The notes under the pieces: generated by a model
Databases searched by the model: none
Told to the model about the DNA's origin: nothing
What the model saw: only the letters and a program-made list of their open reading frames with translations
Part shown: positions 11,758-64,000 of the stretch, piece by piece
Layout of the letters: the number at the start of each line of letters is the position of its first letter
How positions within the stretch are numbered: position 1 is the stretch's first letter
Made by a program: the position numbers and the translations under genes
DNA from: Balanoglossus misakiensis
Taxonomy: Eukaryota; Animalia; Hemichordata
Length of the DNA stretch: 64,000 bases
Direction: 5' to 3'
NCBI GenBank assembly: GCA_040954595.2
Contig: CM082586.2
Span: 9,765,337-9,829,336, forward strand

Positions 11758-11898
11758 TGATGGTGAGATGTTGTTTGCTCCCCAGGGAGTTGAATGGAAT
11801 AGTAAGGTCCAACGACCTAGGTCAAATTACCATGGGACAACTTTAAAGCATGTTGAGATTTAATGTGCTACATAAGTTATAAATATTATATTAATATT

Positions 11899-29571: not shown

Positions 29572-30090
29572 ATGGAGAGGCCCACACCCTACAGAAGTGC
29601 AGACTCTAGCTTTGTCGGAAGCATCGCAGAAGTGATAAGTTTAGGGTTTAGCTGCGGAACCGATCGCTCTATATGTACACGCTCGGTCGCCGATGATCTC
29701 TCCCGATCACATTTTCTGTCATTAAAAATTAATGACAATGGAACACTTTCTGTGATTGTTGATGGTAAAACAGTTCCGTTGGAACAACATGGATTTCCAC
29801 AGCACATACCTGCTACAACAGAAAGTCTAGAAATCATGAATGTCTTTCTTCAAAGAGTGCATATCTGCACAGGTGTTCCCAAGCGCAGCCATTATCATAT
29901 CATGTTCGCCAAAACCATTACTGTTGAGACTAATCACGGTGAAACTGCGGCTGGTAACTACAAGCAGATCATCAGGGATGTTCGCTGTTCCCTCCTCCTT
30001 CCTGTGACCAGTTATGGCCGTACTTGCCGAAGATGCCAAAAAACGTACGACTACGTCAGCCAAAAAACAACCAACAAAGTGTCCCAACAG
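29572..30090 (+). pseudogene. Cys-rich 5' exon fragment, probably the N-terminal part of the P-type transposase (second copy 32612-32910)
   Basis: ICTG...RCSLLL...CRRC motif, ending at a CAG|GTAATA phase-0 donor. Confidence 0.5.
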
Positions 30091-30299
30091 GTAATACTAA
30101 CATATCATAGAATGCAATGCATCGAACATTATTGATTTGCATGTTACGTATAGTTCTATAGTGGATGTAGAATCCCGGAGAGACTAATATGATCACATGG
30201 TACATTTCATAAACAGAATACTTTAATTTCTTGTAAATATGAAATACAGTGAATAAATAAAATGTATCGGCAGTGCAAAATGTAAACCAACAGTGGAGT

Positions 30300-32007: not shown

Positions 32008-32350
32008 TGTAAACAAAACATTCAGGATAAGGTAGAATTACGAATACACTGTTAAAGAACATGTATGACACCTTTGGTTTTGGTGTTTAATGTATGATTC
32101 ATTTGCAACATGCTTCATTTCGTAATGACAGATGAAAAAACAAATCGATTATTGACCATCGACTGCAATCCCAACTGAACGGAGGCCATATGTTGGACGA
32201 TGTCACGGTTGTTTCCTTTGATCTTTGCCGAAAATTTCTGTCCACGCCCATCTTGTCTATTTCGCTACGGGGTCTTATTCAAAACCTAATCACGTAGCGA
32301 TAATATTCCGCCAGGTGTTATCTCATTAATATTCATAAGAATGACAAAGG

Positions 32351-32357
32351 TATAAAA
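32351..32357 (+). promoter_or_regulatory. Candidate TATA box upstream of the putative P-transposase start (ATG 32426)
   Basis: TATAAAA ~70 bp upstream of AACATGG. Confidence 0.35.
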
Positions 32358-33119
32358 GAAGAACAGGGCAGAAGACTCTGTGTCATTTCCTCGCACAGTC
32401 AGGGCAGTCTCCACCGGTATAGAACATGGCTTCGAGACAAGACGTAGCTGCTCAGAAAACCACTTCCAACGTAGCTGTAGACGCTGCCTCACGAAGTTCG
32501 GCAGCCCAGCAGCCAACTCGGGGAACGGCCACTGATTCTGATATCGCACAAGCTTTTGTGGACGCCCATCGAATTACACCTTACGCGAGTCAAGGCGTAA
32601 AGAACAACATAGATTTCCACAGCACATACCTGCTACAACAGAAAGTCTAGAAATCATGAATGTCTTTCTTCAAAGAGTGCATATCTGCACAGGTGTTCCC
32701 AAGCGCAGCCATTATCATATCATGTTCGCCAAAACCATTACTGTTGAGACTAATCACGGTGAAACTGCGGCTGGTAACTACAAGCAGATCATCAGGGATG
32801 TTCGCTGTTCCCTCCTCCTTCCTGTGACCAGTTATGGCCGTACTTGCCGAAGATGCCAAAAAACGTACGACTACGTCAGCCAAAAAACAACCAACAAAGT
32901 GTCCCAACAGGTAATACTAACATATCATAGAATGCAATGCATCGAACATTATTGATTTGCATGTTACGTATAGTTCTATAGTGGATGTAGAATCCCGGAG
33001 AGACTAATATGATCACATGGTACATTTCATAAACAGAATACTTTAATTTCTTGAAAATATGAAATACAGTGAATAAATAAAATGTATCGGCAGTGCAAAA
33101 TGTAAACCAACAGTGGAGT

Positions 33120-38222: not shown

Positions 38223-38911
38223 TGTGTACTTGAGTCCAGTGAATTTGTCAAAAATCTTTAAAAATACTATAGATGCTCAAAACTCGGAATCGGACACGGA
38301 GATCGGAAACGGATCAACTGCGTAATCAACGGATCATGTGATGATGTGATCGCGGCCAATCGGTAAAGGCTGCCGCACACGAGAGAAATAAGCTGAGCAA
38401 AAAGTCATTCGAGGAATTTTGCTCAGCAAGTTTCTCTCGTGTGCGGTGGACTTGAGTAATTTTCCTCGCGAGGAAAAAAAATATCAAACATGTTGAATAT
38501 CGTGATCCGCGGCGCAAAAGATCAGGAAAAATCGCCCGCACACGGAAGGAAAATTTATATTCTCACCCAAATTGAAAGTTATGTTTGTGAGCGAAAAAAC
38601 TTGAAGTGCATTTTCTGCAAAGTTCAAGTTCATGGGTCTACACCATAAATTACGGCCGTACAAACCCGTGAGATAATACTAGTAAAAGTTGTATGTTCGT
38701 ATTTTTTTTTTTTATTGCATTGGGAGGGGGGGGGGGGGCAACGCTACAACCATAATGATATTTGTAAATTTACAAAAGACAAATGGCGATGGAACATAAT
38801 ATGTAAACGCCGAGAAAAATCACTACCATAGAGAAATCACGATGTTTTATATGTGCTAATATAGTATGTACATCAACATAATTTAACACCTAATCTTTCT
38901 ACATATTGCAG

Positions 38912-40534
38912 GATACTGGCAAGATGACTAGCACTGAAACGAAAAGTGATAGTTTGTGTGAAGTGCTGCAAACCCTGCCAGAAAATGCAGTCAGCCTGAT
39001 TTCGTCGATGGTTAAAAATAGCACAGTGAAACCAACCAGCAGAAGATGGGATAGAGATGTAATAAAATTCGGCCTACACTTGTGGCTTAGAACGCCACAG
39101 GGCTATGAAGACATAAGGAAAAGCGGCCATCTTCTACTCCCCTCCCCTAGACGTCTGCAGATGTACAAGAACATAATCGATAAAAAATCTGGGTTTCATG
39201 ACGACATATTTCAGTGGATGAAAGACACGGCTGCAGAGAAAAACATCCTCCCATCTGGAGGCTCGGTTGGTATCATACTAGATGAGATGGCCATCCAGGA
39301 GGATCTACAGATTGACACCAGAGGTGGCATTAGTAAACTAGTTGGTGATGTAGACCTCGGAGACGAATGTACCAGTATGGATGTGATGAAGGCTGGATAC
39401 AAGAAAGGAGTACTTGCGAATCATACTCTACAATTTCAATTTCTGGGCTTTACCGGTTTCACCTTCCCATTTGCGCACTTTCCAACTCGCCAAGTTCAGG
39501 CCTATCATCTTTACGTTCTATTTTGGGAAGCTGTTGATAAATTAACAGACTGGGGCTTTACTGTTGATTTAGCAATGTTCGATGGTGCCGCAGCAAATCG
39601 TTCTTTCCTGAAAATGAATTTCAACGGCAACCCACTTGATGAAAAGATGCACGCCCCGAACCGCCTCTGCAGTCCTTCTGACACCGTTATAATGTGTATG
39701 GATCCAAACATGTAATTAAGAGACTAAGGAACAGTGTACTGAAGAGTGGTGAAGGCGATACCTATCCCAGGCATTTGCGATGGAATGGTGTTTATATTGA
39801 ATGGCAACACTGGCGCGATTCCTACAAGTGGGACACAGAAGTTAACCCGGAAATGTGTAGAATCAACCACAGGTTAACAACCGAACACATTTTCCCGGGA
39901 ATGTCCGCAAAAATGCGAAACCATCTCGCTGAGCAGGTCCTCGACAGTGAAATGCTCCACCTAATGGTTTGCTTCCAGCAAAGTCTTCCCGATCCAGATA
40001 TAGCCAGGCACGACTGAATGGCACAATCGAATTCTTACGCCACACCAGTCAAATCGCGTCATTTTTCACTGACGACAGGGAAGTAAAAGGGTGTGATGAT
40101 GGGAGGCTGTTGCAGTTACTCGTGGCAAGAGATTGGTTCCAATCGTGGGAGAAAGACGAGTTGGCAGACGAGACAACAACCAAAAGCAAGAGGGCCAGAA
40201 GACTGATGTCACATGAGACACGTGAAGACATTGTGTTTTGCCTGACCGCAGTCGTCGAGATTTGTGAGAAGAGGGCGGCTAAGTCGCTGACTACACTCCC
40301 GAGTCGACTCAACAGTGACGTCGTTGAGAACTTTTTATGCCAGCAGAGGACGAATCATAACGGCTCGAACACCAACCCTACGTACCTCCAATATACAAAG
40401 GGGTGAACAGTGTTTTGCTCAGTCAAACGAGCCGTACGTCGGCTAAGAAAGCCAATGCTGGTATAAGGGCGGCACAGCCTTTTAATTTCACTACACCCAA
40501 ACCTTTAAAGGTTCAGAAAATAAGTCAAAATTGA
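38912..40534 (+). pseudogene. P-element superfamily (THAP9-like core) transposase with three frameshifts
   Basis: LPSPRRLQ, IILDEMAIQEDL, FDGAAANR, DP/KHVIKRLRN, KMRNHLA, RLNSDVVENFLCQQR, NPTYLQY. Frame changes at ~39710, ~40010 and ~40400. Splice acceptor at 38911. Confidence 0.88.
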
Positions 40535-42265: not shown

Positions 42266-42364
42266 TAGTCTCGGTTACCCAGACCCCCCTGCTTCTTCCG
42301 TTGGGCTCTCCCCTCTTTGGAGTGCCCAACGGAAGAAGCAGGGGGGTCTGGGTAACAGAGACTA
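42266..42364. mobile_element. 99-bp palindromic MITE, TAG...CTA termini, 9-bp TSD (Academ-type)
   Basis: TATTCACAC at 42257-42265 and 42365-42373. Arms of ~45 bp are nearly perfect inverted repeats. Confidence 0.88.
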
Positions 42365-45830: not shown

Positions 45831-48800
45831 CTGTAATGGAAATGGAGAAAGTACCTTATATTTTCTGTAAAATAGACATTTAATTGGCAAGCCGTCCTGC
45901 ATCAATTATTAATTGTGTACATGCACTAAAGCGCCCTCACTGCTGGGTGTGTTGTATGGTCTTTAACCCTGTTTCAAATTAGAGTACTTTCTGCAATTTC
46001 AAGACAGATCTTACGTGCCATTGGAGAGCTCCATTGACTGGTCATTCATACTGTTTTCATTCATTCATTGCGGCATCAATATATTTTATCTATTCTAGCC
46101 AAAGAGCTTGGCACCTGTTGAAATGAACTCATCTGCTGTGGGCCAGTTTATTGGTGGCAGTTGAGCTGAGGAGAGCACCTTCCTTCCCGGCACGCCACCA
46201 AGTAAAGTTCCACGCCGCCCCCCACAGATGCCAGCATTCATTCATGCGAGTGAGTGTAATTGCAAATTTGCCTATTCTAGATCTGTAATGGAAATGGAGA
46301 AAGTACCTTATATTTTCTGTAAAATAGACATTTAATTGGCAAGCCGTCCTGCATCAATTATTAATTGTGTACATGCACTAAAGCGCCCTCACTGCTGGGT
46401 GTGTTGTATGGTCTTTAACCCTGTTTCAAATTAGAGTACTTTCTGCAATTTCAAGACAGATCTTACGTGCCATTGGAGAGCTCCATTGACTGGTCATTCA
46501 TACTGTTTTCATTCATTCATTGCGGCATCAATATATTTTATCTATTCTAGCCAAAGAGCTTGGCACCTGTTGAAATGAACTCATCTGCTGTGGGCCAGTT
46601 TATTGGTGGCAGTTGAGCTGAGGAGAGCACCTTCCTTCCCGGCACGCCACCAAGTAAAGTTCCACGCCGCCCACCACAGATGCCAGCATTCATTCATGCG
46701 AGTGAGTGTAATTGCAAATTTGCCTATTCTAGAATCTTACGTGCCATTGGAGAGCTCCATTGACTGGTCATTCATACTGTTTTCATTCATTCATTGCGGC
46801 ATCAATATATTTTATCTATTCTAGCCGAAGAGCTTGGCACCTGTTGAAATGAACTCATCTGCTGTGGGCCAGTTTATTGGTGGCAGTTGAGCTGAGGAGA
46901 GCACCTTTCTTCCCGGCACGCCACCAAGTAAAGTTCCACGCCGCCCACCACAGATGCCAGCATTCATTCATGCGAGTGAGTGTAATTGCAAATTTGCCTA
47001 TTCTTACGTGCCATTGGAGAGCTCCATTGACTGGTCATTCATACTGTTTTCATTCATTCATTGCGGCATCAATATATTTTATCTATTCTAGCCAAAGAGC
47101 TTGGCACCTGTTGAAATGAACTCATCTGCTGTGGGCCAGTTTATTGGTGGCAGTTGAGCTGAGGAGAGCACCTTCCTTCCCGGCACGCCACCAAGTAAAG
47201 TTCCACGCCGCCCACCACAGATGCCAGCATTCATTCATGCGAGTGAGTGTAATTGCAAATTTGCCTATTCTAGATCTGTAATGGAAATGGAGAAAGTACC
47301 TTATATTTTCTGTAAAATAGACATTTAATTGGCAAGCCGTCCTGCATCAATTATTAATTGTGTACATGCACTAAAGCGCCCTCACTGCTGGGTGTGTTGT
47401 ATGGTCTTTAACCCTGTTTCAAATTAGAGTACTTTCTGCAATTTCAAGACAGATCTTACGTGCCATTGGAGAGCTCCATTGACTGGTCATTCATACTGTT
47501 TTCATTCATTCATTGCGGCATCAATATATTTTATCTATTCTAGCCAAAGAGCTTGGCACCTGTTGAAATGAACTCATCTGCTGTGGGCCAGTTTATTGGT
47601 GGCAGTTGAGCTGAGGAGAGCACCTTCCTTCCCGGCACGCCACCAAGTAAAGTTCCACGCCGCCCACCACAGATGCCAGCATTCATTCATGCGAGTGAGT
47701 GTAATTGCAAATTTGCCTATTCTAGATCTGTAATGGAAATGGAGAAAGTACCTTATATTTTCTGTAAAATAGACATTTAATTGGCAAGCCGTCCTGCATC
47801 AATTATTAATTGTGTACATGCACTAAAGCGCCCTCACTGCTGGGTGTGTTGTATGGTCTTTAACCCTGTTTCAAATTAGAGTACTTTCTGCAATTTCAAG
47901 ACAGATCTTACGTGCCATTGGAGAGCTCCATTGACTGGTCATTCATACTGTTTTCATTCATTCATTGCGGCATCAATATATTTTATCTATTCTAGCCAAA
48001 GAGCTTGGCACCTGTTGAAATGAACTCATCTGCTGTGGGCCAGTTTATTGGTGGCAGTTGAGCTGAGGAGAGCACCTTCCTTCCCGGCACGCCACCAAGT
48101 AAAGTTCCACGCCGCCCACCACAGATGCCAGCATTCATTCATGCGAGTGAGTGTAATTGCAAATTTGCCTATTCTAGAATCTTACGTGCCATTGGAGAGC
48201 TCCATTCATACTGTTTTCATTCATTCATTGCGGCATCAATATATTTTATCTATTCTAGCCGAAGAGCTTGGCACCTGTTGAAATGAACTCATCTGCTGTG
48301 GGCCAGTTTATTGGTGGCAGTTGAGCTGAGGAGAGCACCTTCCTTCCCGGCACGCCACCAAGTAAAGTTCCACGCCGCCCACCACAGATGCCAGCATTCA
48401 TTCATGCGAGTGAGTGTAATTGCAAATTTGCCTATTCTAGAATCTTACGTGCCATTGGAGAGCTCCATTCATACTGTTTTCATTCATTCATTGCGGCATC
48501 AATATATTTTATCTATTCTAGCCGAAGAGCTTGGCACCTGTTGAAATGAACTCATCTGCTGTGGGCCAGTTTATTGGTGGCAGTTGAGCTGAGGAGAGCA
48601 CCTTCCTTCCCGGCACGCCACCAAGTAAAGTTCCACGCCGCCCACCACAGATGCCAGCATTCATTCATGCGAGTGAGTGTAATTGCAAATTTGCCTATTC
48701 TTACGTGCCATTGGAGAGCTCCATTGACTGGTCATTCATACTGTTTTCATTCATTCATTGCGGCATCAATATATTTTATCTATTCTAGCCAAAGAGCTTG

Positions 48801-51800
48801 GCACCTGTTGAAATGAACTCATCTGCTGTGGGCCAGTTTATTGGTGGCAGTTGAGCTGAGGAGAGCACCTTCCTTCCCGGCACGCCACCAAGTAAAGTTC
48901 CACGCCGCCCACCACAGATGCCAGCATTCATTCATGCGAGTGAGTGTAATTGCAAATTTGCCTATTCTAGATCTGTAATGGAAATGGAGAAAGTACCTTA
49001 TATTTTCTGTAAAATAGACATTTAATTGGCAAGCCGTCCTGCATCAATTATTAATTGTGTACATGCACTAAAGCGCCCTCACTGCTGGGTGTGTTGTATG
49101 GTCTTTAACCCTGTTTCAAATTAGAGTACTTTCTGCAATTTCAAGACAGATCTTACGTGCCATTGGAGAGCTCCATTGACTGGTCATTCATACTGTTTTC
49201 ATTCATTCATTGCGGCATCAATATATTTTATCTATTCTAGCCAAAGAGCTTGGCACCTGTTGAAATGAACTCATCTGCTGTGGGCCAGTTTATTGGTGGC
49301 AGTTGAGCTGAGGAGAGCACCTTCCTTCCCGGCACGCCACCAAGTAAAGTTCCACGCCACCCACCACAGATGCCAGCATTCATTCATGCGAGTGAGTGTA
49401 ATTGCAAATTTGCCTATTCTAGAATCTTACGTGCCATTGGAGAGCTCCATTGACTGGTCATTCATACTGTTTTCATTCATTCATTGCGGCATCAATATAT
49501 TTTATCTATTCTAGCCGAAGAGCTTGGCACCTGTTGAAATGAACTCATCTGCTGTGGGCCAGTTTATTGGTGGCAGTTGAGCTGAGGAGAGCACCTTCCT
49601 TCCCGGCACGCCACCAAGTAAAGTTCCACGCCGCCCACCACAGATGCCAGCATTCATTCATGCGAGTGAGTGTAATTGCAAATTTGCCTATTCTTACGTG
49701 CCATTGGAGAGCTCCATTGACTGGTCATTCATACTGTTTTCATTCATTCATTGCGGCATCAATATATTTTATCTATTCTAGCCAAAGAGCTTGGCACCTG
49801 TTGAAATGAACTCATCTGCTGTGGGCCAGTTTATTGGTGGCAGTTGAGCTGAGGAGAGCACCTTCCTTCCCGGCACGCCACCAAGTAAAGTTCCACGCCG
49901 CCCACCACAGATGCCAGCATTCATTCATGCGAGTGAGTGTAATTGCAAATTTGCCTATTCTAGATCTGTAATGGAAATGGAGAAAGTACCTTATATTTTC
50001 TGTAAAATAGACATTTAATTGGCAAGCCATCCTGCATCAATTATTAATTGTGTACATGCACTAAAGCGCCCTCACTGCTGGGTGTGTTGTATGGTCTTTA
50101 ACCCTGTTTCAAATTAGAGTACTTTCTGCAATTTCAAGACAGATCTTACGTGCCATTGGAGAGCTCCATTGACTGGTCATTCATACTGTTTTCATTCATT
50201 CATTGCGGCATCAATATATTTTATCTATTCTAACCAAAGAGCTTGGCACCTGTTGAAATGAACTCATCTGCTGTGGGCCAGTTTATTGGTGGCAGTTGAG
50301 CTGAGGAGAGCACCTTCCTTCCCGGCACGCCACCAAGTAAAGTTCCACGCCGCCCACCACAGATGCCAGCATTCATTCATGCGAGTGAGTGTAATTGCAA
50401 ATTTGCCTATTCTAGATCTGTAATGGAAATGGAGAAAGTACCTTATATTTTCTGTAAAATAGACATTTAATTGGCAAGCCGTCCTGCATCAATTATTAAT
50501 TGTGTACATGCACTAAAGCGCCCTCACTGCTGGGTGTGTTGTATGGTCTTTAACCCTGTTTCAAATTAGAGTACTTTCTGCAATTTCAAGACAGATCTTA
50601 CGTGCCATTGGAGAGCTCCATTGACTGGTCATTCATACTGTTTTCATTCATTCATTGCGGCATCAATATATTTTATCTATTCTAGCCAAAGAGCTTGGCA
50701 CCTGTTGAAATGAACTCATCTGCTGTGGGCCAGTTTATTGGTGGCAGTTGAGCTGAGGAGAGCACCTTCCTTCCCGGCACGCCACCAAGTAAAGTTCCAC
50801 GCCGCCCACCACAGATGCCAGCATTCATTCATGCGAGTGAGTGTAATTGCAAATTTGCCTATTCTAGATCTGTAATGGAAATGGAGAAAGTACCTTATAT
50901 TTTCTGTAAAATAGACATTTAATTGGCAAGCCGTCCTGCATCAATTATTAATTGTGTACATGCACTAAAGCGCCCTCACTGCTGGGTGTGTTGTATGGTC
51001 TTTAACCCTGTTTCAAATTAGAGTACTTTCTGCAATTTCAAGACAGATCTTACGTGCCATTGGAGAGCTCCATTGACTGGTCATTCATACTGTTTTCATT
51101 CATTCATTGCGGCATCAATATATTTTATCTATTCTAGCCAAAGAGCTTGGCACCTGTTGAAATGAACTCATCTGCTGTGGGCCAGTTTATTGGTGGCAGT
51201 TGAGCTGAGGAGAGCACCTTCCTTCCCGGCACGCCACCAAGTAAAGTTCCACGCCGCCCACCACAGATGCCAGCATTCATTCATGCGAGTGAGTGTAATT
51301 GCAAATTTGCCTATTCTAGATCTGTAATGGAAATGGAGAAAGTACCTTATATTTTCTGTAAAATAGACATTTAATTGGCAAGCCGTCCTGCATCAATTAT
51401 TAATTGTGTACATGCACTAAAGCGCCCTCACTGCTGGGTGTGTTGTATGGTCTTTAACCCTGTTTCAAATTAGAGTACTTTCTGCAATTTCAAGACAGAT
51501 CTTACGTGCCATTGGAGAGCTCCATTGACTGGTCATTCATACTGTTTTCATTCATTCATTGCGGCATCAATATATTTTATCTATTCTAGCCAAAGAGCTT
51601 GGCACCTGTTGAAATGAACTCATCCTTCCCGGCACGCCACCAAGTAAAGTTCCACGCCGCCCACCACAGATGCCAGCATTCATTCATGCGAGTGAGTGTA
51701 ATTGCAAATTTGCCTATTCTAGAATCTTACGTGCCATTGGAGAGCTCCATTGACTGGTCATTCATACTGTTTTCATTCATTCATTGCGGCATCAATATAT

Positions 51801-53376
51801 TTTATCTATTCTAGCCGAAGAGCTTGGCACCTGTTGAAATGAACTCATCTGCTGTGGGCCAGTTTATTGGTGGCAGTTGAGCTGAGGAGAGCACCTTCCT
51901 TCCCGGCACGCCACCAAGTAAAGTTCCACGCCGCCCACCACAGATGCCAGCATTCATTCATGCGAGTGAGTGTAATTGCAAATTTGCCTATTCTTACGTG
52001 CCATTGGAGAGCTCCATTGACTGGTCATTCATACTGTTTTCATTCATTCATTGCGGCATCAATATATTTTATCTATTCTAGCCAAAGAGCTTGGCACCTG
52101 TTGAAATGAACTCATCTGCTGTGGGCCAGTTTATTGGTGGCAGTTGAGCTGAGGAGAGCACCTTCCTTCCCGGCACGCCACCAAGTAAAGTTCCACGCCG
52201 CCCACCACAGATGCCAGCATTCATTCATGCGAGTGAGTGTAATTGCAAATTTGCCTATTCTAGATCTGTAATGGAAATGGAGAAAGTACCTTATATTTTC
52301 TGTAAAATAGACATTTAATTGGCAAGCCGTCCTGCATCAATTATTAATTGTGTACATGCACTAAAGCGCCCTCACTGCTGGGTGTGTTGTATGGTCTTTA
52401 ACCCTGTTTCAAATTAGAGTACTTTCTGCAATTTCAAGACAGATCTTACGTGCCATTGGAGAGCTCCATTGACTGGTCATTCATACTGTTTTCATTCATT
52501 CATTGCGGCATCAATATATTTTATCTATTCTAGCCAAAGAGCTTGGCACCTGTTGAAATGAACTCATCTGCTGTGGGCCAGTTTATTGGTGGCAGTTGAG
52601 CTGAGGAGAGCACCTTCCTTCCCGGCACGCCACCAAGTAAAGTTCCACGCCGCCCACCACAGATGCCAGCATTCATTCATGCGAGTGAGTGTAATTGCAA
52701 ATTTGCCTATTCTAGATCTGTAATGGAAATGGAGAAAGTACCTTATATTTTCTGTAAAATAGACATTTAATTGGCAAGCCGTCCTGCATCAATTATTAAT
52801 TGTGTACATGCACTAAAGCGCCCTCACTGCTGGGTGTGTTGTATGGTCTTTAACCCTGTTTCAAATTAGAGTACTTTCTGCAATTTCAAGACAGATCTTA
52901 CGTGCCATTGGAGAGCTCCATTGACTGGTCATTCATACTGTTTTCATTCATTCATTGCAGCATCAATATATTTTATCTATTCTAGCCAAAGAGCTTGGCA
53001 CCTGTTGAAATGAACTCATCTGCTGTGGGCCAGTTTATTGGTGGCAGTTGAGCTGAGGAGAGCACCTTCCTTCCCGGCACGCCACCAAGTAAAGTTCCAC
53101 GCCGCCCACCACAGATGCCAGCATTCATTCATGCGAGTGAGTGTAATTGCAAATTTGCCTATTCTAGAATTCTTACGTGCCATTGGAGAGCTCCATTGCC
53201 TGGTCAATCATACTGTTTTCATTCATTCATTGTGGCATCAATATATTTTATCTATTCTAGCCGAAGAGCTTGGCACCTGTTGAAATGAACTCATCTGCTG
53301 TGGGCCAGTTTATTGGTGGCAGTTGAGCAGAGGAGAGCACCTTCTTTCCCGGCACGCCACCAAGTAAAGTTCCACG
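45831..53376 (+). repeat. Left terminal array: 177-bp TIR-bearing module B + ~275-bp module A (452-bp period), with B absent at 10 junctions
   Basis: B starts at 45831, 46283, 47276, 47728, 48973, 49966, 50418, 50870, 51322, 52266 and 52718. Copies are near-identical. Confidence 0.95.
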
Positions 53377-53763
53377 TGCATTCCTGGCCCTGGTTTTATT
53401 TATGTTTACAGACAATATTGCATTTTTGTACAAGTATTTTAATCAACTATAAATTTTGAATGTGTCATTTACCTGAACCGGTCATGTTGACCAGAATGAT
53501 ACATTTCTGCCTTCACTCACCCTATAAATATGTGATTGAGACATAGGTCATTTGCATAAGCTAACATACCAGAAAGTAAGCATATCTGTTGTTTTCCCTG
53601 TGTCACTGCCATCAAAGTAAAAATTAGACGTTGTGTAGAGCAAACTCCAATTTTTTGTTCTCAATAAACATGGATGAATTACATAGAATGTGTTTGTTGT
53701 TTACAGTCTTTAAATGACACATTAGATTATGCACTTTACAAAACGTTTCTGAGAAACAAGTGA

Positions 53764-54264
53764 CTAACTAGTTTCTTTCCACTGTGGCCAACGTGGTTCA
53801 CTGTTTGTGTCAGAATCTCTCTGTTTTGCAAGGATTTTGAAATCATAGTGGTGACATGCATAGTGAAAATCAGCTACTTTCAAATGTCTGTCATGTTCAT
53901 GCTGTAATTGAATTTTCAAAGCTGGGCTGGCGTGTTTTTTCTTATTTACATAAGTATCACACTTTATACATGTATCTTCATGGGGTTTTTTGAGTCCCGT
54001 ATTTAGGTCCTCTCTCACAATTTTACGAAATATCGTATAACTGACAGTTGTTCTTCCCAGAAGAGATTGGTTGGTTATGAACTCTCGGTGTAACTGCGAT
54101 ATACTGTGGTCCGGCGCCAGGTACGGTTTAAATCGAGGATTCCTGCAGTAGTGAGATTCTACAATTATGTGCCTGCGTACGTGTTCAGTGATATCAGTCA
54201 GCAAATTTGGATTGAGTTTCCGACGATGCCCTTTGTGTCGGCCCCTTGCATCTGGCATCAGACC
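53764..54264 (-). pseudogene. 5'-truncated duplicate of the Sola N-half gene (902-bp tandem duplication 53363-54264 / 54265-55166)
   Basis: ORF 53764-54258 is nearly identical to the C-terminal 164 aa of 54666-55622. Confidence 0.9.
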
Positions 54265-54665
54265 AGTAAAGTTCCATGTGCATTCCTGGCCCTGGTTTTA
54301 TTTATGTTTACAGACAATATTGCATTTTTGTACAAGTATTTTAATCAACTATAAATTTTGAATGTGTCATTTACCTGAACCGGTCATGTTGACCAGAATG
54401 ATACATTTCTGCCTTCACTCACCCTATAAATATGTGATTGAGACATAGGTCATTTGCATAAGCTAACATACCAGAAAGTAAGCATATCTGATGTTTTCCC
54501 TGTGTCACTGCCATCAAAGTAAAAATTAGACGTTGTGTAGAGCAAACTCCAATTTTTTGTTCTCAATAAACATGGATGAATTACATAGAATGTGTTTGTT
54601 GTTTACAGTCTTTAAATGACACATTAGATTATGCACTTTACAAAACGTTTCTGAGAAACAAGTGA

Positions 54666-55622
54666 CTAACTAGTTTCTTTCCACTGTGGCCAACGTGGTT
54701 CACTGTTTGTGTCAGAATCTCTCTGTTTTGCAAGGATTTTGAAATCATAGTGGTGACATGCATAGTGAAAATCAGCTACTTTCAAATGTCCGTCATGTTC
54801 ATGCTGTAATTGAATTTTCAAAGCTGGGCTGGCGTGTTTTTTCTTATTTACATAAGTATCACACTTTATACATGTATCTTCATGGGGTTTTCTGAGTCCC
54901 GTATTTAGGTCCTCTCTCACAATTTTACGAAATATCGTATAACTGACAGTTGTTCTTCCCAGAAGAGATTGGTTGGTTATGAACTCTCGGTGTAACTGCG
55001 ATATACTGTGGTCCGGCGCCAGGTACGGTTTAAATCGAGGATTCCTGCAGTAGTGAGATTCTACAATTCTGTGCCTGCGTACGTGTTCAGTGATATCAGT
55101 CAGCAAATTTGGATTGAGTTTCCGACGATGCCCTTTGTGTCGGCCCCTTGCATCTGGCATCAGACCAGTTGAACAGTGCATCATTTTGCTTAGAACGGTT
55201 CTAGTCCGCCTCTCACTAATGCCAAATAATTTCAGGAATGCATTTTTGCAGACAGTAACCGTTTCACCGCCTTCATTCACCAGGTGATAACGAACCGATT
55301 TCTTGTGTGACTTCATCTGTATATCCATCAGTTTGTAGAGCATCAAGTTCTGTTCATTATACACGCGACCATCAAAATATTTTCTCGTGGTGCCTAAAAC
55401 ATGCGTACTCCCAAGCTTCCGCAGACAATTCCCTTGAACGCAGGCGCATTCCAAGGAAAGACTGTCAATATCTGGAAAAGGGCGATTTTTCCTTGGTTTT
55501 TGTCTCGGACACGTCTTTTTAGAATTCCTACGTGGCTTGTTGGCTCGAGCTGACAGTTCGGTTCTGCGTTGCTGCCACACAGGAATGGGTTCCCACGCAT
55601 AAGCAACTCCCCGGCAGGCCAT
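54666..55622 (-). CDS. Sola1-type transposase N-terminal half (Cys/His-rich DNA-binding region), 318 aa
   Basis: ACCATGG start and an uninterrupted frame. Motifs CACVQGNC, VCKNAFLKLFGIS..R, DARGRH, ESHYCR, YL, SY..FRKI, KPHEDTCIKCD, H..HL, as I recognise them from Sola1 N-termini. Confidence 0.8.
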   Translation of the reverse strand: MACRGVAYAWEPIPVWQQRRTELSARANKPRRNSKKTCPRQKPRKNRPFPDIDSLSLECACVQGNCLRKLGSTHVLGTTRKYFDGRVYNEQNLMLYKLMDIQMKSHKKSVRYHLVNEGGETVTVCKNAFLKLFGISERRTRTVLSKMMHCSTGLMPDARGRHKGHRRKLNPNLLTDITEHVRRHRIVESHYCRNPRFKPYLAPDHSISQLHREFITNQSLLGRTTVSYTIFRKIVREDLNTGLRKPHEDTCIKCDTYVNKKKHASPALKIQLQHEHDGHLKVADFHYACHHYDFKILAKQRDSDTNSEPRWPQWKETS

Positions 55623-55785
55623 GGTCACAGCTGAAGTATTTGTTCAAGTACTGACTGACTAAACGCGGCATGGAACAAACGAACGAACGACTTCACGTTC
55701 GGAAAAAAAATCGTTGCGAGCTGTTGGGTGCCTCTATAGTTGTCGGCAACCGTTCTTTTTTATTGCTAAACAATGCTGTCAGAGC

Positions 55786-56799
55786 ATGGAAGGTGTGGTG
55801 GAAAACGAACAGAGGTTTTGTACGACCAACGATTGGATGGTGCTACATATGGACTTCCACAAGTCATTGCCGGTTCCTAAACTCAGCTCTGAAGACTTTT
55901 ACTTTAAATCGAAATTGCAAATGAAGCTCCTTGGAATTTACAACGGGACAACGGAAAAGATGCATTGTTATGTATGGACAGAGCTCGATAGCAGAAAGTC
56001 TCCCGATGAAGTTATTACCTGTCTAAATCACTTTTTTTATAACTCGGGTGTGACCAGCAGACATGCAGTTATTTACAGCGACAACTGCCGTGCCGAATTC
56101 AAGTGTGGGAAGTTAATGTTTTACTATGACTATCTGTTACGAAAGGGCGTGTTTCGACGAATTGACTATAAAACTCTTGTGGCTGGACACACGTACTCCA
56201 CCTGTGACCGAGTTTTTGCGTCCATTGAAAGGCATGCAAGTCGTTTCCAGAGTATAGAGACACCTCACGATTGGACATCTGTGATTCGAGGATCTTCTCT
56301 GAATGGGAACATTGGAGTTACGGAGATGACTCACAGAGACTTTTTCAATTATTCTGATTTCCTGAAAAATGAGTACGTTGTGCGTTATGCAGATACAAAC
56401 AATGTAACTTTTTACTACCAAGCCATGCACTATTTTAATTTTGGAGAAGGAGAAAGGCTTGATACCGACGGCAACCTCAGAACATTTAGTCATGCAGATA
56501 AAGTTTGGGTGAGAACATCTCTAGATCCAAGCGAGACCCCGATTGTAGTCGACTTTAGAAAGAAGAAGCAGAACCGGCGTTTACAAGATTGTACGCTGAA
56601 CAAACTTTATCAGGAACGTCGACCACTGGCGAGCAAAGTTTGGCGGGATCTTCAGAGTTTAGCCAAAAATTACCTGTCTCCGGAGGCAATAGAATTTTAT
56701 AGGAATCTACCGCTTCAGGAGAGTAGTGGCACCTCTGCAGACCCGTACGCCTTTCATGATGATGACGACGACGATGATGATGATATGGGCGGTGGTTGA
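55786..56799 (+). CDS. Sola1-type transposase catalytic (RNase H-fold DDD) half, 337 aa
   Basis: AGCATGG start. LHMDFHKSLPVP..FYFKSKL, YVWTE...SPDEVITCL, YSDNC, GHTYSTCDRVFASIE: all three Asp present. Acidic tail. Confidence 0.85.
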   Translation: MEGVVENEQRFCTTNDWMVLHMDFHKSLPVPKLSSEDFYFKSKLQMKLLGIYNGTTEKMHCYVWTELDSRKSPDEVITCLNHFFYNSGVTSRHAVIYSDNCRAEFKCGKLMFYYDYLLRKGVFRRIDYKTLVAGHTYSTCDRVFASIERHASRFQSIETPHDWTSVIRGSSLNGNIGVTEMTHRDFFNYSDFLKNEYVVRYADTNNVTFYYQAMHYFNFGEGERLDTDGNLRTFSHADKVWVRTSLDPSETPIVVDFRKKKQNRRLQDCTLNKLYQERRPLASKVWRDLQSLAKNYLSPEAIEFYRNLPLQESSGTSADPYAFHDDDDDDDDDMGGG

Positions 56800-56960
56800 A
56801 CAAACTGTCCTTTTCATGACGACAGTGATTTTGGATATTTGATGTGCGTGCACAGTTTATATGTAATATTTTCACACGAACGAGTTTTGACTGAATTTGA
56901 TTAAAGAATGTACTCGATAATTAACAAATGTGCTGAATCGTGGTTATTATGTTGTTAATT

Positions 56961-56993
56961 TTTGTTTGTTTGTTTGTTTGTTTGTTTGTTTGT
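56961..56993. repeat. (TTTG)n microsatellite
   Basis: Direct reading. Confidence 0.9.
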
Positions 56994-57189
56994 AAACAAT
57001 TTCCGTTCATTCAACTGGCTACAAAGTTGGATTTTTGTACTGGGAAGCGATAAACTCGCACATCAAAACCGGGGAGACTCGATCATTTTTCCCTGCAGGT
57101 AGCCTGAAAAGCACCCGGGCAGAGATTACGTCATATATGGTCCACTTTAATACGAAATTATGCAAATGTGACATATCACGGAAACGGCG

Positions 57190-57199
57190 TATATAAAAG
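57190..57199 (+). promoter_or_regulatory. Candidate TATA box of the wHTH-SET gene
   Basis: TATATAAAAG ~90 bp upstream of AACATGG (ATG 57291). Confidence 0.5.
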
Positions 57200-57290
57200 C
57201 GACCCTGGGCTATTGTTCGGAATGCGTCATCGACGAGAGAGTGACTGATAATTCTTCTACCTCGAGTCAACCATTCTGTATATACTGAAC

Positions 57291-58616
57291 ATGGCTAGCT
57301 GGCGCAGGAAGAGACAAGGCAATGTGCGGTCTGTAATCAACGAACGGCACCGCTCAGTTCAGTGTCCCTTTCTTCAAAAGTGGATCGGTGAGCAATTGGT
57401 ATTTTCAGGTCGTTCAGAGGATGAAGTCCAGTCCAGTACTGTATTTGAGAGCTACAAATGTTGGGTTGAAAACTATTCGTCGGCGGACAATCAAGTAATG
57501 ATTATGGTTACTAAAGCTCGATTTTTCAAGGTGAGAATGATCGCATTTTTCTTCCCCCCCCCCTCCCTCCCCCAAGGGACTCGTTTTCTGTCTCTTTTAA
57601 ACCTGTAACTTAACGAAAAGGAAGTTTTTCACATATCTCTTTGTTGACACTATAGCAATTTGGAGCGCGGATGCTTCAAGAGAATAGCGTTACCAAATCA
57701 AAGTCGGCCGGGGTTAATATTTATAGAGGTGTTCGTCTGAAAGCTGGTTCGCGAAGAATCTCAACGGGGAAACCTGAGCACAGTGTACTTCAGACCAGGG
57801 CAAGGGCATTTCTTGATGACGCCAGCGTGACCGTTCCGATCGAGGTAAGAATGGTGTTTTGTTTGGACTAGGACAATAGAACGTTGCAATGAGTGTGTCA
57901 ATGGGTGTCCAAGTGCAAACGTGGTCGGCTTCTGTCCACAAATGCCATTAATTTTAGGCAGGATTTATAAAATTGTCAATGAAGAATACAAAAATGAAAA
58001 ACAATAGTTAATAGCAAACGGGTAGGATTGCAAGGGCTTGTAAAACGGTACACACTGTACCAGGAAGTTTGCAACACTAATGAAGAATGTATATGATATA
58101 TTTAGGTGAGAACTGTTCGCGATCGCCGGGACGCAGGACGGTGCGCGTTTTCGACGAGGGATCTTCAAGCCTGGAACGTCGTCTGCGAATACCGGGGCAC
58201 GGTTATTAGCGTTGAAGAAGCTAGTCGGCGTGATGAACTTTACAGGGCAGAGGGGAAACGACCACGCATGTTTCATCTCTACATTGGAAAGAGACACGTT
58301 GTGTGAGTGTATCACTTAGTCGAATATATGGTCATATATTGCAAAGCATCTGTCGAAATAGAAAACGTAATATTGTCTATATTTTCCTCATTAACGCAGC
58401 ATTGACGGATACGATGTCCCAGCCGGTGAAGAAAATTTAGCGGGCCTAATAAATCACAGTCAGCAGAACGCCAACTTGGTACCGGTTCGGATCGGAGAGC
58501 GCCTGGTTTTCTTTGCAACCAGGAATCTTTGTCAGGGAGTAGAGCTTTTGTATGATTACGGTGACGGGGGTGAAGAGGATTTCTTCAGTGGTTCTCAAAC
58601 TTTTCCTGAAAATTAA
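57291..58616 (+). CDS. Winged-helix (RFX/D5-C-terminal-like) + PR-Set7/SETD8-like SET-domain protein, 4 exons, 280 aa
   Basis: Exons 57291-57530, 57656-57844, 58106-58302 and 58400-58616, all GT-AG, total 843 nt in frame. SET motifs GRCAFSTR, VCEYRG, RDELY, IDG, GLINHS, FFATRNL..G.ELLYDYGD. Confidence 0.85.
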
Positions 58617-59518
58617 GGCATTAACACATCAACGCTTCGGGATGTCGTAACGGCGGCAAGGCGGGGGGGGGGGGCGTGAAAATGTTTGTATCAGGAACAA
58701 AATTCCCCTGCAAATCACCTTGATCCGGGTGGGTGGACTATTCGCGACAAATGTTGAAATCATACAAAGCATTTTACTTAATTAACCCATTTTTTTTTCA
58801 TTTATTTGTTTACAGTTTACAACGTCATAGAGAAGTTGAACTAGAGACTGGATCAGCGTGGGTGACACCATAGTACACCAATGTTTTCTTCCGTTTGAAT
58901 CAATTGTAATTTAAAACTGAGATTGCCTAACGCTTTCCCAGATTTTTTTAACCACTGAGAAACTGTGGGTTTTTTTCTGGGTTTTGGTGCGAGGTGATCT
59001 CAGTCAGTGGTGTTAATTTAATTAATCATTTTATTTTCCTATTTACGTCGACTGAAATGTATTTTGATAGGTGATAGTCATACCATAAAAAAATCTTACG
59101 GCGCGACTGCCAAAATGTACATTTATTTGTCCGTTCCAAGTTATTTTGTGTATGTGTGATGGGTGCCGGTGACTGTGCAGGGTTGATTTCCCTAGAGCGA
59201 CTGTTATATTCGTTTTCCAACGATGATGAATTTACATGTTATTTGCTTGGCATTTTGACGCAGAGACACTTCTGAAAACACAAACCTATTTATTATGCCA
59301 CGGGTGTAAATTGATCACATTAAAAGAGGCTTTAGACGTTTGCCGCGAGCTCCTGGTGGGCAGAATCTTGTCAGCCCAAATTTGACTATAAGTACATAGC
59401 CAATGATATGACGCTCTCCCACATCCTTCGCCGCGCCTTTTCGCTGATTTACAGCATCTTGCGTAAACACTGTCATTTGATCTTGCTTGGCAGAAGTCAA
59501 CTTGCTCTATACTACATT

Positions 59519-59884
59519 ATGGCGGCCAAGCTCAACTGCATATCAGATAATGCCAAGGAGCGTTTGAGAGGCATCCTCGCCAGAAGGAGTCGCGTTTCCG
59601 GTGACTGTGTGCTCTGGACGGGTGCAGCTTGTCGAAACGGCTATGGCTCTATTACGTTCAAAGATGAGAACACTCTAACCGCCTATGTCCATCACATTGC
59701 ACTCCTAATTAACGGAGTGCAATTGGTGGGCAGGCGGTTAGAGTGTTCTCATCTTTGCAACGAAAAGCTATGCATCCGCCCAGAGCACATTGTCCAGGAA
59801 ACGCGACTCCTAAACATTTCACGAAAGACGTGCTTTAAATCCCCAAAAGGGGAGTGTCACCACGATCCCAGGTGCCTAAGGTGA
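59519..59884 (+). CDS. Small His-Me finger (His-Cys box, I-PpoI-like) endonuclease, 121 aa
   Basis: CVLWTGA..RNGYG, YVHH, SHLCNEKLCIRPEHIVQETRLLNISRKTC, CHHDPRC. The His of SHLC and the downstream Asn are retained. A splice donor at 59881 could alter the last residues. Confidence 0.88.
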   Translation: MAAKLNCISDNAKERLRGILARRSRVSGDCVLWTGAACRNGYGSITFKDENTLTAYVHHIALLINGVQLVGRRLECSHLCNEKLCIRPEHIVQETRLLNISRKTCFKSPKGECHHDPRCLR

Positions 59885-60870
59885 GTAATCCTCTTCTCAT
59901 TTGATATGTATTGTGTGACCCTGCAGTTGAAACGCTTTCATCAATAATTTGCGGCGCGTGGGTAATCTCGGTGTTATTGACAATGCAGCCGGCCCAAACA
60001 TTTTTAAATTAACACTGTTTCTGACTGTATTAACGAAATGTCCAATTTGCAAGTAGCCTATAGACAACCCTTTTGAATGAGTTTTGTCTCGTTGAGATTT
60101 TATACATAAGGAACAATCTAGATTTATTTTAGAAGACACTGTTCTTTTAAAACAGCTAGCATAATACAGCTAAATTTCGGAATTTCCGGACAATTTTCGG
60201 AATTCCTTTTAAATTTGAGAAATTTTTCATCAGATATAAGTGTTACTATTTATTGGGCATGTTTTTATCATTGTTTACTTTTTAAGGTCATTCTCATCCC
60301 CCCCCCCCCCAAAAAAAAAAGCCGCTTTAGGCTTCATGTTCAGTAAAAAATCTGGAAAGTTCAGCTGAATTTTACACTGATCACACATTTTTGGGAAGGT
60401 CTGGCGCAAAATAAAGGATGACAAATGTAAATCTAATGTCACATTTGTAAACCTCTAAGTATTGTACACTCATTCTATTAAGTATATGCAAATAGTACGG
60501 ATAATTTTTTCGGAATGTGGAATTCCGAAATTAGTTCGGAACGTGTTAGCAGTGAAGAGATCACCACTGAGGGTTGGAAGGCCTTGCCAGAAATTAACGC
60601 GTAAAGTACGCCCTCACAGGCCATGTAAACAAGGTCAAATAAGGCCGTCTGGCAAACGAATGATTAATTCAACGCGCCATTTGAGCCGAGCTGAGTTGGT
60701 CTGAGTTGCGTATCACACAGACTTAGGCTGAATGTCAGTGGAGTAACCAGTCCGTTTTAGATTTACCAATGATGTGAATTTAATTTCTTCACCCAGAAAA
60801 ACAGAACACAACTTGTCTGCAACATGATGCTGGAGGTGACACATGACAGAGAAGTGGATCCGCGTTGTCA

Positions 60871-61200
60871 ACACAGATGCCAGCATTCAAAAGGGGAGTG
60901 CCACCTGCTAAAATCAACTCATCTGCTGTTGGCCCATTTTACCTGTGGCAACTGTTCAGAGGAGACAACGTTTATTCCGTGCAAGCCAACACGCAATGTT
61001 GGGGTCTACCTGTCAACACAGATGCAAGCATTCATGTGAGTGAGTATCAGGACTGACCTTGTATTTGCTGAATAATTCATAATGCCTATTTTAGAATTCT
61101 TAGAGGCATTTGGAGTTCATTGCCTGGTCAACCAAACTACACCCCTTAACAGCTGAAACAAAATGCGTATTGTGTTCATTCATTCATTGCATCAATATAT
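60871..61200 (+). repeat. Highly diverged module-A relic inside the element
   Basis: CACAGATGCCAGCATTCA, AACTCATCTGCTG, GCCTATTTTAGAATTCTTA and CATTCATTCATTGCATCAATATAT match module A. Confidence 0.75.
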
Positions 61201-61515
61201 ATAGGCAACATGAGTATCAAGTAGCACTATTTGTTTACGATTGTATTCATGAAAACTTCCCACTAACAATTCCACAGTTAATATTGAACACATTTATCCA
61301 ACAAGGTCAAAAGAAAAAGGGAATCTTCTGGTTCCAAAATACGCCACAAATGTGGGTCAACATACAGTGAAATATTATGGTGCTCAAATATGCAACATAT
61401 CAAATCTGTCTCATCAAAGTCATGCTTTAAAAAAGAATTGAAAAGGTATTATTTATCCATTTGACTGCTGTATTTTCAGAAGGAAAACAAACTGAATTTG
61501 GTTTTTCATGTACAA

Positions 61516-63117
61516 ATATTTTCTGTAAAATAGACATTTAATTGGCAAGCCGTCCTGCATCAATTATTAATTGTGTACATGCACTAAAGCGCCCTCACTG
61601 CTGGGTGTGTTGTATGGTCTTTAACCCTGTTTCAAATTAGAGTACTTTCTGCAATTTCAAGACAGATCTTACGTGCCATTGGAGAGCTCCATTGACTGGT
61701 CATTCATACTGTTTTCATTCATTCATTGCGGCATCAATATATTTTATCTATTCTAGCCAAAGAGCTTGGCACCTGTTGAAATGAACTCATCTGCTGTGGG
61801 CCAGTTTATTGGTGGCAGTTGAGCTGAGGAGAGCACCTTCCTTCCCGGCACGCCACCAAGTAAAGTTCCACGCCGCCCACCACAGATGCCAGCATTCATT
61901 CATGCGAGTGAGTGTAATTGCAAATTTGCCTATTCTAGATTCTTACGTGCCATTGGAGAGCTCCATTGACTGGTCATTCATACTGTTTTCATTCATTCAT
62001 TGCGGCATCAATATATTTTATCTATTCTAGCCAAAGAGCTTGGCACCTGTTGAAATGAACTCATCTGCTGTGGGCCAGTTTATTGGTGGCAGTTGAGCTG
62101 AGGAGAGCACCTTCCTTCCCGGCACGCCACCAAGTAAAGTTCCACGCCGCCCACCACAGATGCCAGCATTCATTCATGCGAGTGAGTGTAATTGCAAATT
62201 TGCCTATTCTAGATCTGTAATGGAAATGGAGAAAGTACCTTATATTTTCTGTAAAATAGACATTTAATTGGCAAGCCGTCCTGCATCAATTCTTAATTGT
62301 GTACATGCACTAAAGCGCCCTCACTGCTGGGTGTGTTGTATGGTCTTTAACCCTGTTTCAAATTAGAGTACTTTCTGCAATTTCAAGACAGATCTTACGT
62401 GCCATTGGAGAGCTCCATTGACTGGTCATTCATACTGTTTTCATTCATTCATTGCGGCATCAATATATTTTATCTATTCTAGCCAAAGAGCTTGGCACCT
62501 GTTGAAATGAACTCATCTGCTGTGGGCCAGTTTATTGGTGGCAGTTGAGCTGAGGAGAGCACCTTCCTTCCCGGCACGCCACCAAGTAAAGTTCCACGCC
62601 GCCCACCACAGATGCCAGCATTCATTCATGCGAGTGAGTGTAATTGCAAATTTGCCTATTCTAGATTCTTACGTGCCATTGGAGAGCTCCATTGACTGGT
62701 CATTCATACTGTTTTCATTCATTCATTGCGGCATCAATATATTTTATCTATTCTAGCCAAAGAGCTTGGCACCTGTTGAAATGAACTCATCTGCTGTGGG
62801 CCAGTTTATTGGTGGCAGTTGAGCTGAGGAGAGCACCTTCCTTCCCGGCACGCCACCAAGTAAAGTTCCACGCCGCCCACCACAGATGCCAGCATTCATT
62901 CATGCGAGTGAGTGTAATTGCAAATTTGCCTATTCTAGATCTGTAATGGAAATGGAGAAAGTACCTTATATTTTCTGTAAAATAGACATTTAATTGGCAA
63001 GCCGTCCTGCATCAATTATTAATTGTGTACATGCACTAAAGCGCCCTCACTGCTGGGTGTGTTGTATGGTCTTTAACCCTGTTTCAAATTAGAGTACTTT
63101 CTGCAATTTCAAGACAG
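61516..63117 (+). repeat. Right terminal array: partial B, A, A, B, A, A, B (same orientation as the left array)
   Basis: Complete B at ~62214 and at 62941-63117. The innermost B lacks its left TIR. B-less junctions at ~61940 and ~62665. Confidence 0.93.
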
Positions 63118-63286
63118 ATATACTTATATACTTATATACTTATATATTAGATGAAACACCGAAAAAGGTATCAACTAGTTAGTGATTTTAGCCCGTGATT
63201 GCAATGTTTGATTGAAACGCGAAAAGCTGATCGATAGCTCTACATTGTGGTCTCCGAGGTCAAAGGTTGGCCGGTCATGGCGATAC

Positions 63287-63475
63287 CATTATTAAAATAG
63301 GGGCCAGTCATCAAAACGTAAGTGAGCCAAAAAACTACAGGTCAGATAAATTGTTTTCTCGTAAATTCAACATTAGAATCAAATTTGGCGTTGGAAACAA
63401 ACGGCGGGTCGCCAGTTCCTGGTCTGGAGGCTGGTAGAGTCACGTCTTGAAGACTGGCCCCTATTTTAATAATGG
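63287..63475. mobile_element. Short inverted-repeat element (possible MITE)
   Basis: CCATTATTAAAATAGGGGCCAGTC is inverted as GACTGGCCCCTATTTTAATAATGG ~140 bp downstream. Confidence 0.5.
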
Positions 63476-64000
63476 CATTCCAGCATATGTCTCTATACCC
63501 GAATCGACAATTAACATTACAGGACAGCTGACGGATATAAAATTTATACTTTATAGAGAGGAACAAATTCAGACTTAAACATACTTTATATGTTTGTATT
63601 TTACAGCTGGGATACTTTTCTGTGCGTAAAGATAAACACTGGTCGCAATAAATGACGTCGAGTGGTTTCAGTTGAATTCCATTTGTGCGAGGCAGGTGTG
63701 GACAGCATGCAAAGCGGCGTTGTTATTGGCGCGGTTCCTTTAAAGTGTTTTACTCTGTCATTCAGCGAGTTTTCTGACCGCGTATGAAGTTCGGTGTCCA
63801 GTGGCGTTGACGGCGTGTCATTCAGAAATCTATGTTCAGTGTATTCAGTTCAAGACTGAAGTCAGCAAATGTTACAATTATTAGTTTGTTTGTGGAAGTT
63901 GGAAATGATGCAACAAGGATTCTTGAATGTATTCGAGATTTTAAAAAGAAGATGTAGTGCTCTAAAGGGCCATTGTGACGACAATATTTTGCCCAACAGC

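Follow-up and report, generated by a model that had tools for sequence, protein, structure and literature searches.

The analysed window, a 64-kb stretch of Balanoglossus misakiensis DNA, contains a transposon that carries a gene in which a predicted winged-helix domain is fused to a SET domain. This gene is real, intact and conserved in a second species. The fusion of a winged helix to a SETD8-like SET domain with an altered cofactor site, borne by an animal transposon, is apparently undescribed; what is already known is the presence of SET genes as DNA-transposon cargo in oomycetes and red algae.

The winged-helix and SET gene is intact and has a homolog in Ptychodera flava

The gene consists of four exons (57291-58616, plus strand) which sum to 843 nt and encode 280 aa and a stop codon:

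57291..57530, plus strand: exon 1 (aa 1-80), with a basic N-terminus and the helices of the winged helix
57656..57844, plus strand: exon 2 (aa 81-143), with the end of the recognition helix, the beta wing, a basic linker containing R113/R114 and K119, and a helix predicted as n-SET
58106..58302, plus strand: exon 3, N-terminal half of the SET domain; Y172 corresponds to SETD8 Y245, and C156, W166 and R197 differ from SETD8
58400..58616, plus strand: exon 4, GLINHS (G224 at the position of SETD8 R295), ELLYDYGD, short acidic tail without HPWL, stop codon

The introns measure 125, 261 and 97 nt, each with GT..AG borders, and the frame contains no internal stop across the spliced exons. The sequence-only reading had proposed this four-exon model and had remarked that the last exon was missing from the ORF track. 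The model agrees with the exon sums and with a colinear P. flava homolog, and exon 4 is indeed not found among the ATG ORFs of at least 100 aa, where the gene is represented only by exon 1 with its read-through into intron 1 (105 aa).

The homolog, P0001 (XP_070545977.1, 278 aa), shares 176 of the 280 residues of the spliced product (63% identity). The alignment is ungapped at all three junctions, and the start and the end coincide; the predicted junctions are thus backed by homology. Among the large parts, conservation is highest in the SET core (87/125 identical), with 46/85 identical positions in the winged helix. A HMMER search of 1.84 billion representatives, using exon 1 alone as the query (no SET part, no transposase), returned five matches, namely P0001 and four ORFs from Logan contigs. 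The latter show 32-37% identity to exon 1, and in all four the similarity stops after RF-x-K; the next residue is Val, which an unspliced GT donor would encode at the position of intron 1. Because these four homologs lose the match exactly there, we take intron 1 to be old and the family to be wider than two species.

Other searches gave little. With exon 4 as the query, 2 of 93 candidate proteins matched, the best of them being P0001. None of 20 longer candidate proteins matched exon 1 in a search that also missed P0001, and full-length P0001 matched one of 334 candidates, which was P0001 itself. The P. flava protein is the sole member of its protein cluster. Searches of metagenome, viral and prokaryote collections revealed no relative of the locus. 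In the Atlas, no cluster of at least 50 members has the winged-helix and SET architecture, a blank that does not prove absence, and a feature search there with the whole protein gave no usable match.

The gene lies within a transposon built of modular arrays and a gene cassette

The proposal that the SET gene is transposon-borne is supported: the gene lies inside an element with terminal inverted repeats (TIRs) and has a raised sequencing depth common to the internal genes. Apart from the exons, the features of the element are as follows:

45831..63117, no strand assigned: whole element, 17.3 kb, with CTGT...ACAG ends and a 24-bp imperfect TIR (19/24)
45831..53376, plus strand: left array; it comprises 21 A modules of about 273 bp and 11 B modules of 177 bp, and every B module has TIRs of its own
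53363..54267, minus strand: tandem duplicate (905 bp, 99.4% identity) of the 3' portion of the N-half ORF
54666..55622, minus strand: Cys/His-rich ORF of 318 aa, read as the N-terminal half of the transposase
55623..55785, no strand assigned: divergent promoter region, 163 bp, with one RFX X-box-like palindrome at 55739-55750
55786..56799, plus strand: DUF7869 protein of 337 aa (PF25273, E 1.1e-14), catalytic half of the transposase
57160..57199, plus strand: putative promoter of the SET gene, octamer ATGCAAAT at 57160 and TATA box at 57190
59408..59884, plus strand: His-Me finger (zinc-binding loop) endonuclease ORF of 158 aa (PF05551, E 5.4e-13; PHROG HNH, E 3.9e-14)
61516..63117, plus strand: right array in the orientation of the left one, 4 A modules, 2 full B modules and 1 partial B module

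The element is flanked by an AT or ATAT duplication within a (ATATACTT)n tract, and each of its ends is a copy of the 177-bp module B. Counted over both arrays, there are 25 starts of module A and 13 of module B, in direct orientation. The CpG observed/expected ratio is 0.84-1.06 in the internal genes versus 0.46-0.47 in the arrays.

The modules have features of their own. The TIRs of each B module have AT on either side, and A-A junctions without a B module read AAT, ATT or AATT or show a short deletion, so that they resemble what may be footprints of B excision. Any pair of B modules could define a mobile unit. An old copy of module A, about 70% identical, is found inside the element at 60899-61138.

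The transposase appears to be divided between two intact ORFs arranged head to head, 163 bp apart (54666-56799). The 318-aa ORF had no Pfam, PHROG or NCBIfam match, and we take it to be the N-terminal half on account of its motifs. In the DUF7869 protein, D23, D99 and D141 are intact and presumably make up the candidate acidic triad. The endonuclease ORF, the second cargo gene, is intact as well and contains a perfect 26-bp inverted repeat (59659-59684 / 59732-59757). A viral origin of the element was considered and rejected, since there is no capsid or polymerase among the ATG ORFs of at least 100 aa in 45831-63117.

Depth suggests a multi-copy element with an open SET gene

The sequencing runs X1-X3 come from one sample, which may be the source of the assembly, and element DNA is present in two of the three. 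In X1, all 8 listed long contigs over the internal genes have a depth of 693-831, compared to 50-67 for the lowest flank contigs, and the depth of module B sums to 58,000-118,000. The depth in X2 is uneven, 1255-6676 inside the element and 82-108 in the lowest flank. These values suggest that the SET gene lies within a multi-copy transposon and that the gene cassette moves as a whole, with roughly ten copies or more, bearing in mind that depth is not copy number. By a rough estimate, the arrays would be far more abundant than the cassette. X1 contigs with a depth of 750-770 flank the gap between the transposase halves to within 19 bp, with no joint among those listed. Since they reach both sides of the gap without a listed joint, the split seems to be a trait of the family and not a private inversion.

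One X1 contig covers 57002-58570, and the indels listed within the SET gene are all intronic. The frame is open in the majority X1 contig, whose depth is like that of the transposase halves. The window copy differs from this majority at no fewer than 6 exonic positions, with 21 more differences beyond those listed; among the listed exonic ones, 3 differences are silent and 3 are missense, of which L163I and N167D restore the P. flava residue. X1 contigs of low depth include a diverged exon 4 and a copy without the 3' end of the SET gene. A joint of module B ends with CGAT in X2 was considered as a circular intermediate and rejected, because it makes GATCGATC and the loose ends in X2 carry GATC, as would be the case in a ligation-based library.

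Putative promoter elements

A putative TATA box, TATATAAAAG, lies at 57190, 101 nt 5' of the ATG of the SET gene. A TATA box had been noted there before, and the motif is present; however, when the 200 nt upstream are shuffled with dinucleotides preserved, 403 of 5000 shuffles contain TATAWAWR, which makes it weak when taken alone. The octamer is perfect, is placed 30 bp 5' of the TATA box and arises in 52 of 5000 shuffles, a post hoc figure. An octamer 30 bp upstream of TATA is the layout of S-phase histone H2B promoters. No AATAAA occurs within 780 nt 3' of the stop codon of the gene. The X-box-like palindrome at 55739-55750 arises in 82 of 5000 shuffles, again post hoc. There is no RFX-like site in modules A or B of the arrays, which had been suggested as binding targets, and the one in the transposase promoter is the only such site found within the element.

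The N-terminus is predicted to be a winged helix of the RFX/D5/P4 type

The N-terminal domain had no Pfam match, including RFX (PF02257) and Pox_D5 (PF03288), a profile of exon 1 found nothing below E 0.4 among PDB sequences, and PHROG gave a single match, at E 0.25, to the far C-terminal end of a primase family. Fold models were made of P0001, standing in for the 280-aa window protein. The AlphaFold model built on a 7-row alignment had a pLDDT of 85-90 over residues 51-80, below 50 in the wing region and 49.8 on average, and the single-sequence fold model reached a pLDDT of 33. When compared to 48,161 structures by VIA-align, RFX5 ranked first (Z 5.9, rmsd 4.5, 76 aligned), followed by RFX1 (Z 5.9, rmsd 4.4, 71 aligned), the tail of the ASFV C962R PrimPol (Z 5.4, rmsd 3.0, 74 aligned) and the P4 origin-binding domain (Z 5.4, rmsd 3.3, 81 aligned); only these four reached Z of at least 5. 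Such Z values (5.4-5.9) are modest, and a Z below 8 can mean a common arrangement. The C962R tail, the P4 origin-binding domain and RFX1 are described as one winged-helix group (PMC10516667). In the ESM Atlas, residues 20-115 of P0001 matched clusters containing Pox_D5 by features (0.94, with the family on 14-18% of members) and C-terminal regions of D5/P4 primases by structure (TM 0.68-0.72), two results that count as one source of evidence.

An RFX/D5-type winged helix had been suspected from the residue pattern, with Foldseek named as a check. Foldseek found nothing at E 0.001 in PDB and BFVD, whereas the four leading VIA structures and the Pox_D5 matches of the Atlas support the suggestion as a fold prediction. 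The domain would presumably bind DNA.

The SET domain appears closest to SETD8 and has an altered cofactor pocket

Searched against PDB, the full SET domain matched KMT5A/SETD8 best (E 9e-10), then 4ldg (2.5e-7) and KMT2D (3.3e-6); exon 3 alone scored nearer to MLL3/4 (KMT2C/D) than to SETD8. By these scores SETD8 appears to be the closest solved SET domain, with a weak affinity (E about 1e-9). SETD8 residues are numbered here in the 352-aa form, as fixed by 7d1z_K. The residues R228, Y245, N298, H299, S300, E331, Y334, Y336 and D338 are kept, their equivalents in the window protein being R155, Y172, N227, H228, S229, E257, Y260, Y262 and D264. Thus the NHS and ELLY-D-YGD motifs are present together with Y245/Y334/Y336/D338; P. 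flava has N at D335.

The position of R295, four residues N-terminal to the His of NHS in SETD8, is occupied by Gly in both full-length copies. Other changes found in both are K226 to Ala, G229 to Cys, G239 to Trp and E330 to Val, and the equivalent of Y271 is probably Arg (R197), an assignment that hangs on a one-residue gap. The alignment to SETD8 stops at the K341 equivalent and is followed by a short acidic tail with FF and no HPW(L), H347 and W349 being absent. In SETD8, His347 and Trp349 of the c-SET are the functional tail residues, and the c-SET His reads H18 of H4.

The R265G change, which concerns R295 of the 352-aa form, blocks the activity of SETD8 in vitro and is widely used for inactivation (bioRxiv 10.1101/2022.01.30.478405, PMC2373513). 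Its fly equivalent, R634G, was modelled to disrupt cofactor binding with minimal effect on H4 peptide binding, and the allele is described as a possible catalytic hypomorph (bioRxiv 10.1101/2022.01.30.478405). A catalytically dead point mutant of PR-Set7, whose residue is not specified in the accessible text, was dominant negative for H4K20me1 (PMC3973283).

In SETD8, R188 and R192 are required for acidic-patch binding (PMC7893823). They precede K226 by 38 and 34 residues, and R114 and K119 of the window protein precede the K226 equivalent by 39 and 34, a similarity of spacing only. Both are conserved in P0001. By analogy, we infer that the basic linker may contact the nucleosome.

The gene had been assigned to the PR-Set7/SETD8 family of H4K20 monomethyltransferases. 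The match to SETD8 stands, through the closest solved SET domain and the motifs, but an active H4K20 monomethyltransferase is not established, because both copies have Gly at R295 and other alterations on the side of the cofactor, and the HPWL tail is missing. Judged from sequence, the label is a lead and not a family membership.

Other features of the window

Outside the element, the region 29572-40450 is a separate one with a P-element-like transposase (PF21787, 38924-39715). It also has broken PIF1 helicase ORFs (36301-38222, minus strand), a PHD-finger ORF (33120-34475, minus strand) and a 2.5 kb tandem duplication of 97% identity (29782-32275 / 32602-35072), and is possibly another cargo-carrying element. 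Positions 1-11766 are filled by a satellite whose unit measures about 192-196 bp; its higher-order units are near 1260 bp long, and it has a strong G skew. An ORF with a P2RX7_C domain (24368-25390, E 6e-9) has next to it a tandem repeat of 78 bp, whose reading gives RG-rich repeats, and 19991-20914 holds a C-terminal fragment like a non-LTR retrotransposon ORF with a weak zf-RVT match (E 0.018). Positions 63283-63478 and 42266-42364 hold a MITE-like element of high depth, whose inverted ends measure 37 bp, and a near-perfect palindrome of 46 bp.

Possible function of the protein

Our tentative reading, to which we give somewhat less than an even chance, is that of an accessory gene of a likely multi-copy transposon, with a tethered, SETD8-derived SET domain whose lysine methyltransferase activity, weak or re-tuned, is directed at chromatin nearby. 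The N-terminal part, predicted to be a winged helix of the RFX/D5 type, would hold the SET domain on the DNA of the element itself, the basic linker (R114, K119) would contact the nucleosome, and the SET domain would engage the H4 tail. Y260, the equivalent of Y334, would limit the enzyme to mono-methylation. If the cofactor is bound weakly, tethering to DNA could compensate for this, and it could keep the mark restricted to the element; methylation of its chromatin would benefit the element. Binding of DNA in cis, engagement of the H4 tail and the benefit are all what we infer.

The Gly at R295 invites a different interpretation, in which the protein is a DNA-tethered pseudo-enzyme. It would hold the H4 tail without methylating it and shield H4K20 of the element from the host SETD8 and SUV4-20, so that repressive H4K20me3 would be blocked and homologous repair of excision gaps could be favoured. 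The substitution is natural and common to two copies that are 37% diverged, the modelled fly change disrupts cofactor binding with minimal effect on H4 peptide binding, the dead PR-Set7 mutant is dominant negative (PMC3973283), and the H4K20 state is reported to govern the choice between BRCA1-BARD1 and 53BP1. On the other hand, NHS and the catalytic tyrosines are retained here. Known SET pseudo-enzymes usually lose both, and some active SET enzymes do not have Arg295. In addition, the c-SET His is missing, which makes H4-tail binding itself uncertain. We regard a pseudo-enzyme as somewhat unlikely, though as a close rival of the tethered enzyme. In either of these two cases the protein would act on the chromatin of its own element, as a weak marker or as a shield, which we consider likely. 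Its boldest form would be a sequence-targeted, dominant-negative mimic of SETD8, with a mobile-element winged helix and a SET domain fixed in the R-to-G dead state, which keeps H4K20 unmethylated on the element's own copies, blocks H4K20me3 silencing and steers gap repair to donor-restoring homologous recombination; this we hold to be unlikely.

The two remaining explanations seem less probable still. An active methyltransferase could have a non-histone target, such as its own transposase halves or a host silencing factor, and the winged helix would deliver it to the transposase promoter or the transpososome. The substrate-side loops and the tail do differ from those of SETD8, which itself has non-histone substrates (bioRxiv 10.1101/2022.01.30.478405), and one X-box-like site lies in the divergent transposase promoter; however, that site may serve host RFX factors, and the basic linker has the spacing of the SETD8 nucleosome anchor, and we find this quite unlikely. 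Quite unlikely, too, is that the element has recently picked up a host gene, or a passenger under no selection, that contributes nothing to its spread. The introns and the TATA promoter would fit such an origin, as would the solitary P. flava homolog and the 3 missense and 3 silent differences listed between the window copy and the X1 majority. Against it, the winged helix resembles D5/P4 domains of mobile elements and the frame is open in the majority contig at a depth equal to that of the transposase halves; the lack of an Atlas cluster of at least 50 members would be odd for an old host gene, even if such a blank is not absence.

The interest of the protein lies in the union of a predicted targeting part and an effector part in one chain of 280 aa. 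Action of transposon-borne SET proteins on the element's own chromatin has been proposed, and VANDAL is cited as the single transposon for which binding and modification of its own sequence are demonstrated (bioRxiv 10.1101/2025.02.11.637652). The animal element described here offers candidate target arrays, and its SET domain naturally carries the change of the best-known dead allele of SETD8. Such a system could tell a writer from a shield and put self-targeted counter-silencing to the test in animals. As a tool for H4K20, it would be compact and naturally DNA-targeted.

Comparison with known systems

The window protein shares with SETD8/KMT5A the LINHS and ELLYDYGD motifs and the lack of post-SET cysteines. 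It differs in that it is transposon-borne, has a winged helix in place of the N-terminus of SETD8, has Gly at R295 and changed equivalents of K226/G229/G239/Y271, and has no HPWL tail. No PIP-box-like motif was found in it by regex. Duplications of SETD8 are known in annelids, with no link to transposable elements in the accessible text (PMC12153100). The N-terminus is like the RFX DNA-binding domain, the P4 alpha origin-binding domain and the D5 primase-helicase tail (Pox_D5, PF03288) in its predicted winged-helix topology; unlike in the helicases, it is detached from the helicase and fused to SET, with no sequence-profile match at threshold.

With regard to the transposon itself, it may be related to Sola1, a group of transposons reportedly described by Bao et al. 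in 2009: its transposase motifs resemble those of Sola1, to which DUF7869 would correspond. Sola1 has one transposase ORF, whereas this element has its transposase in two divergent ORFs, two extra genes and modular arrays. As in Sola1, it has TIRs (19/24 bp). Its ATAT flank would fit the AWWT target of that group (PMC3845634, PMC3627910), but a 2-bp AT duplication fits the ends as well as ATAT does, and the internal B modules carry AT only. Subgroups of Sola are named in PMC4455052. The literature searched contained neither a winged-helix/SETD8 fusion nor a SET-carrying Sola, although such elements may be described in Repbase Reports or Bao 2009.

The plant VANDAL elements with their VANC proteins are similar in having internal tandem arrays and in encoding an accessory protein for which action on the DNA of the element itself is proposed (PMC12730594, bioRxiv 10.1101/2025.02.11.637652). 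Binding and hypomethylation are demonstrated for VANC, whereas self-binding of the window protein is presumed. Moreover, the window protein has a SET domain, and VANC is not known to have one.

The closest parallels are transposons with SET cargo. SET genes are reported on HarbingerS elements (PMC12730594) and Phytophthora MuDR (PMC6446971), as well as on red-algal Plavaka (PAG2) elements and Helitrons (bioRxiv 10.1101/2025.02.11.637652). The accessible literature on these four groups contains no description of an R-to-G cofactor site in their SET cargo. In all of them, as in the element described here, the SET gene is accessory cargo of a DNA transposon, and Plavaka elements are similar also in their size of 17-19 kb, tandem arrays and a DNA-binding accessory protein (bioRxiv 10.1101/2025.02.11.637652). 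The present element differs from the known SET-carrying transposons in its animal host and its split DUF7869-type transposase, and its SET domain is fused to an RFX/D5-type winged helix and not to an adenine methylase.
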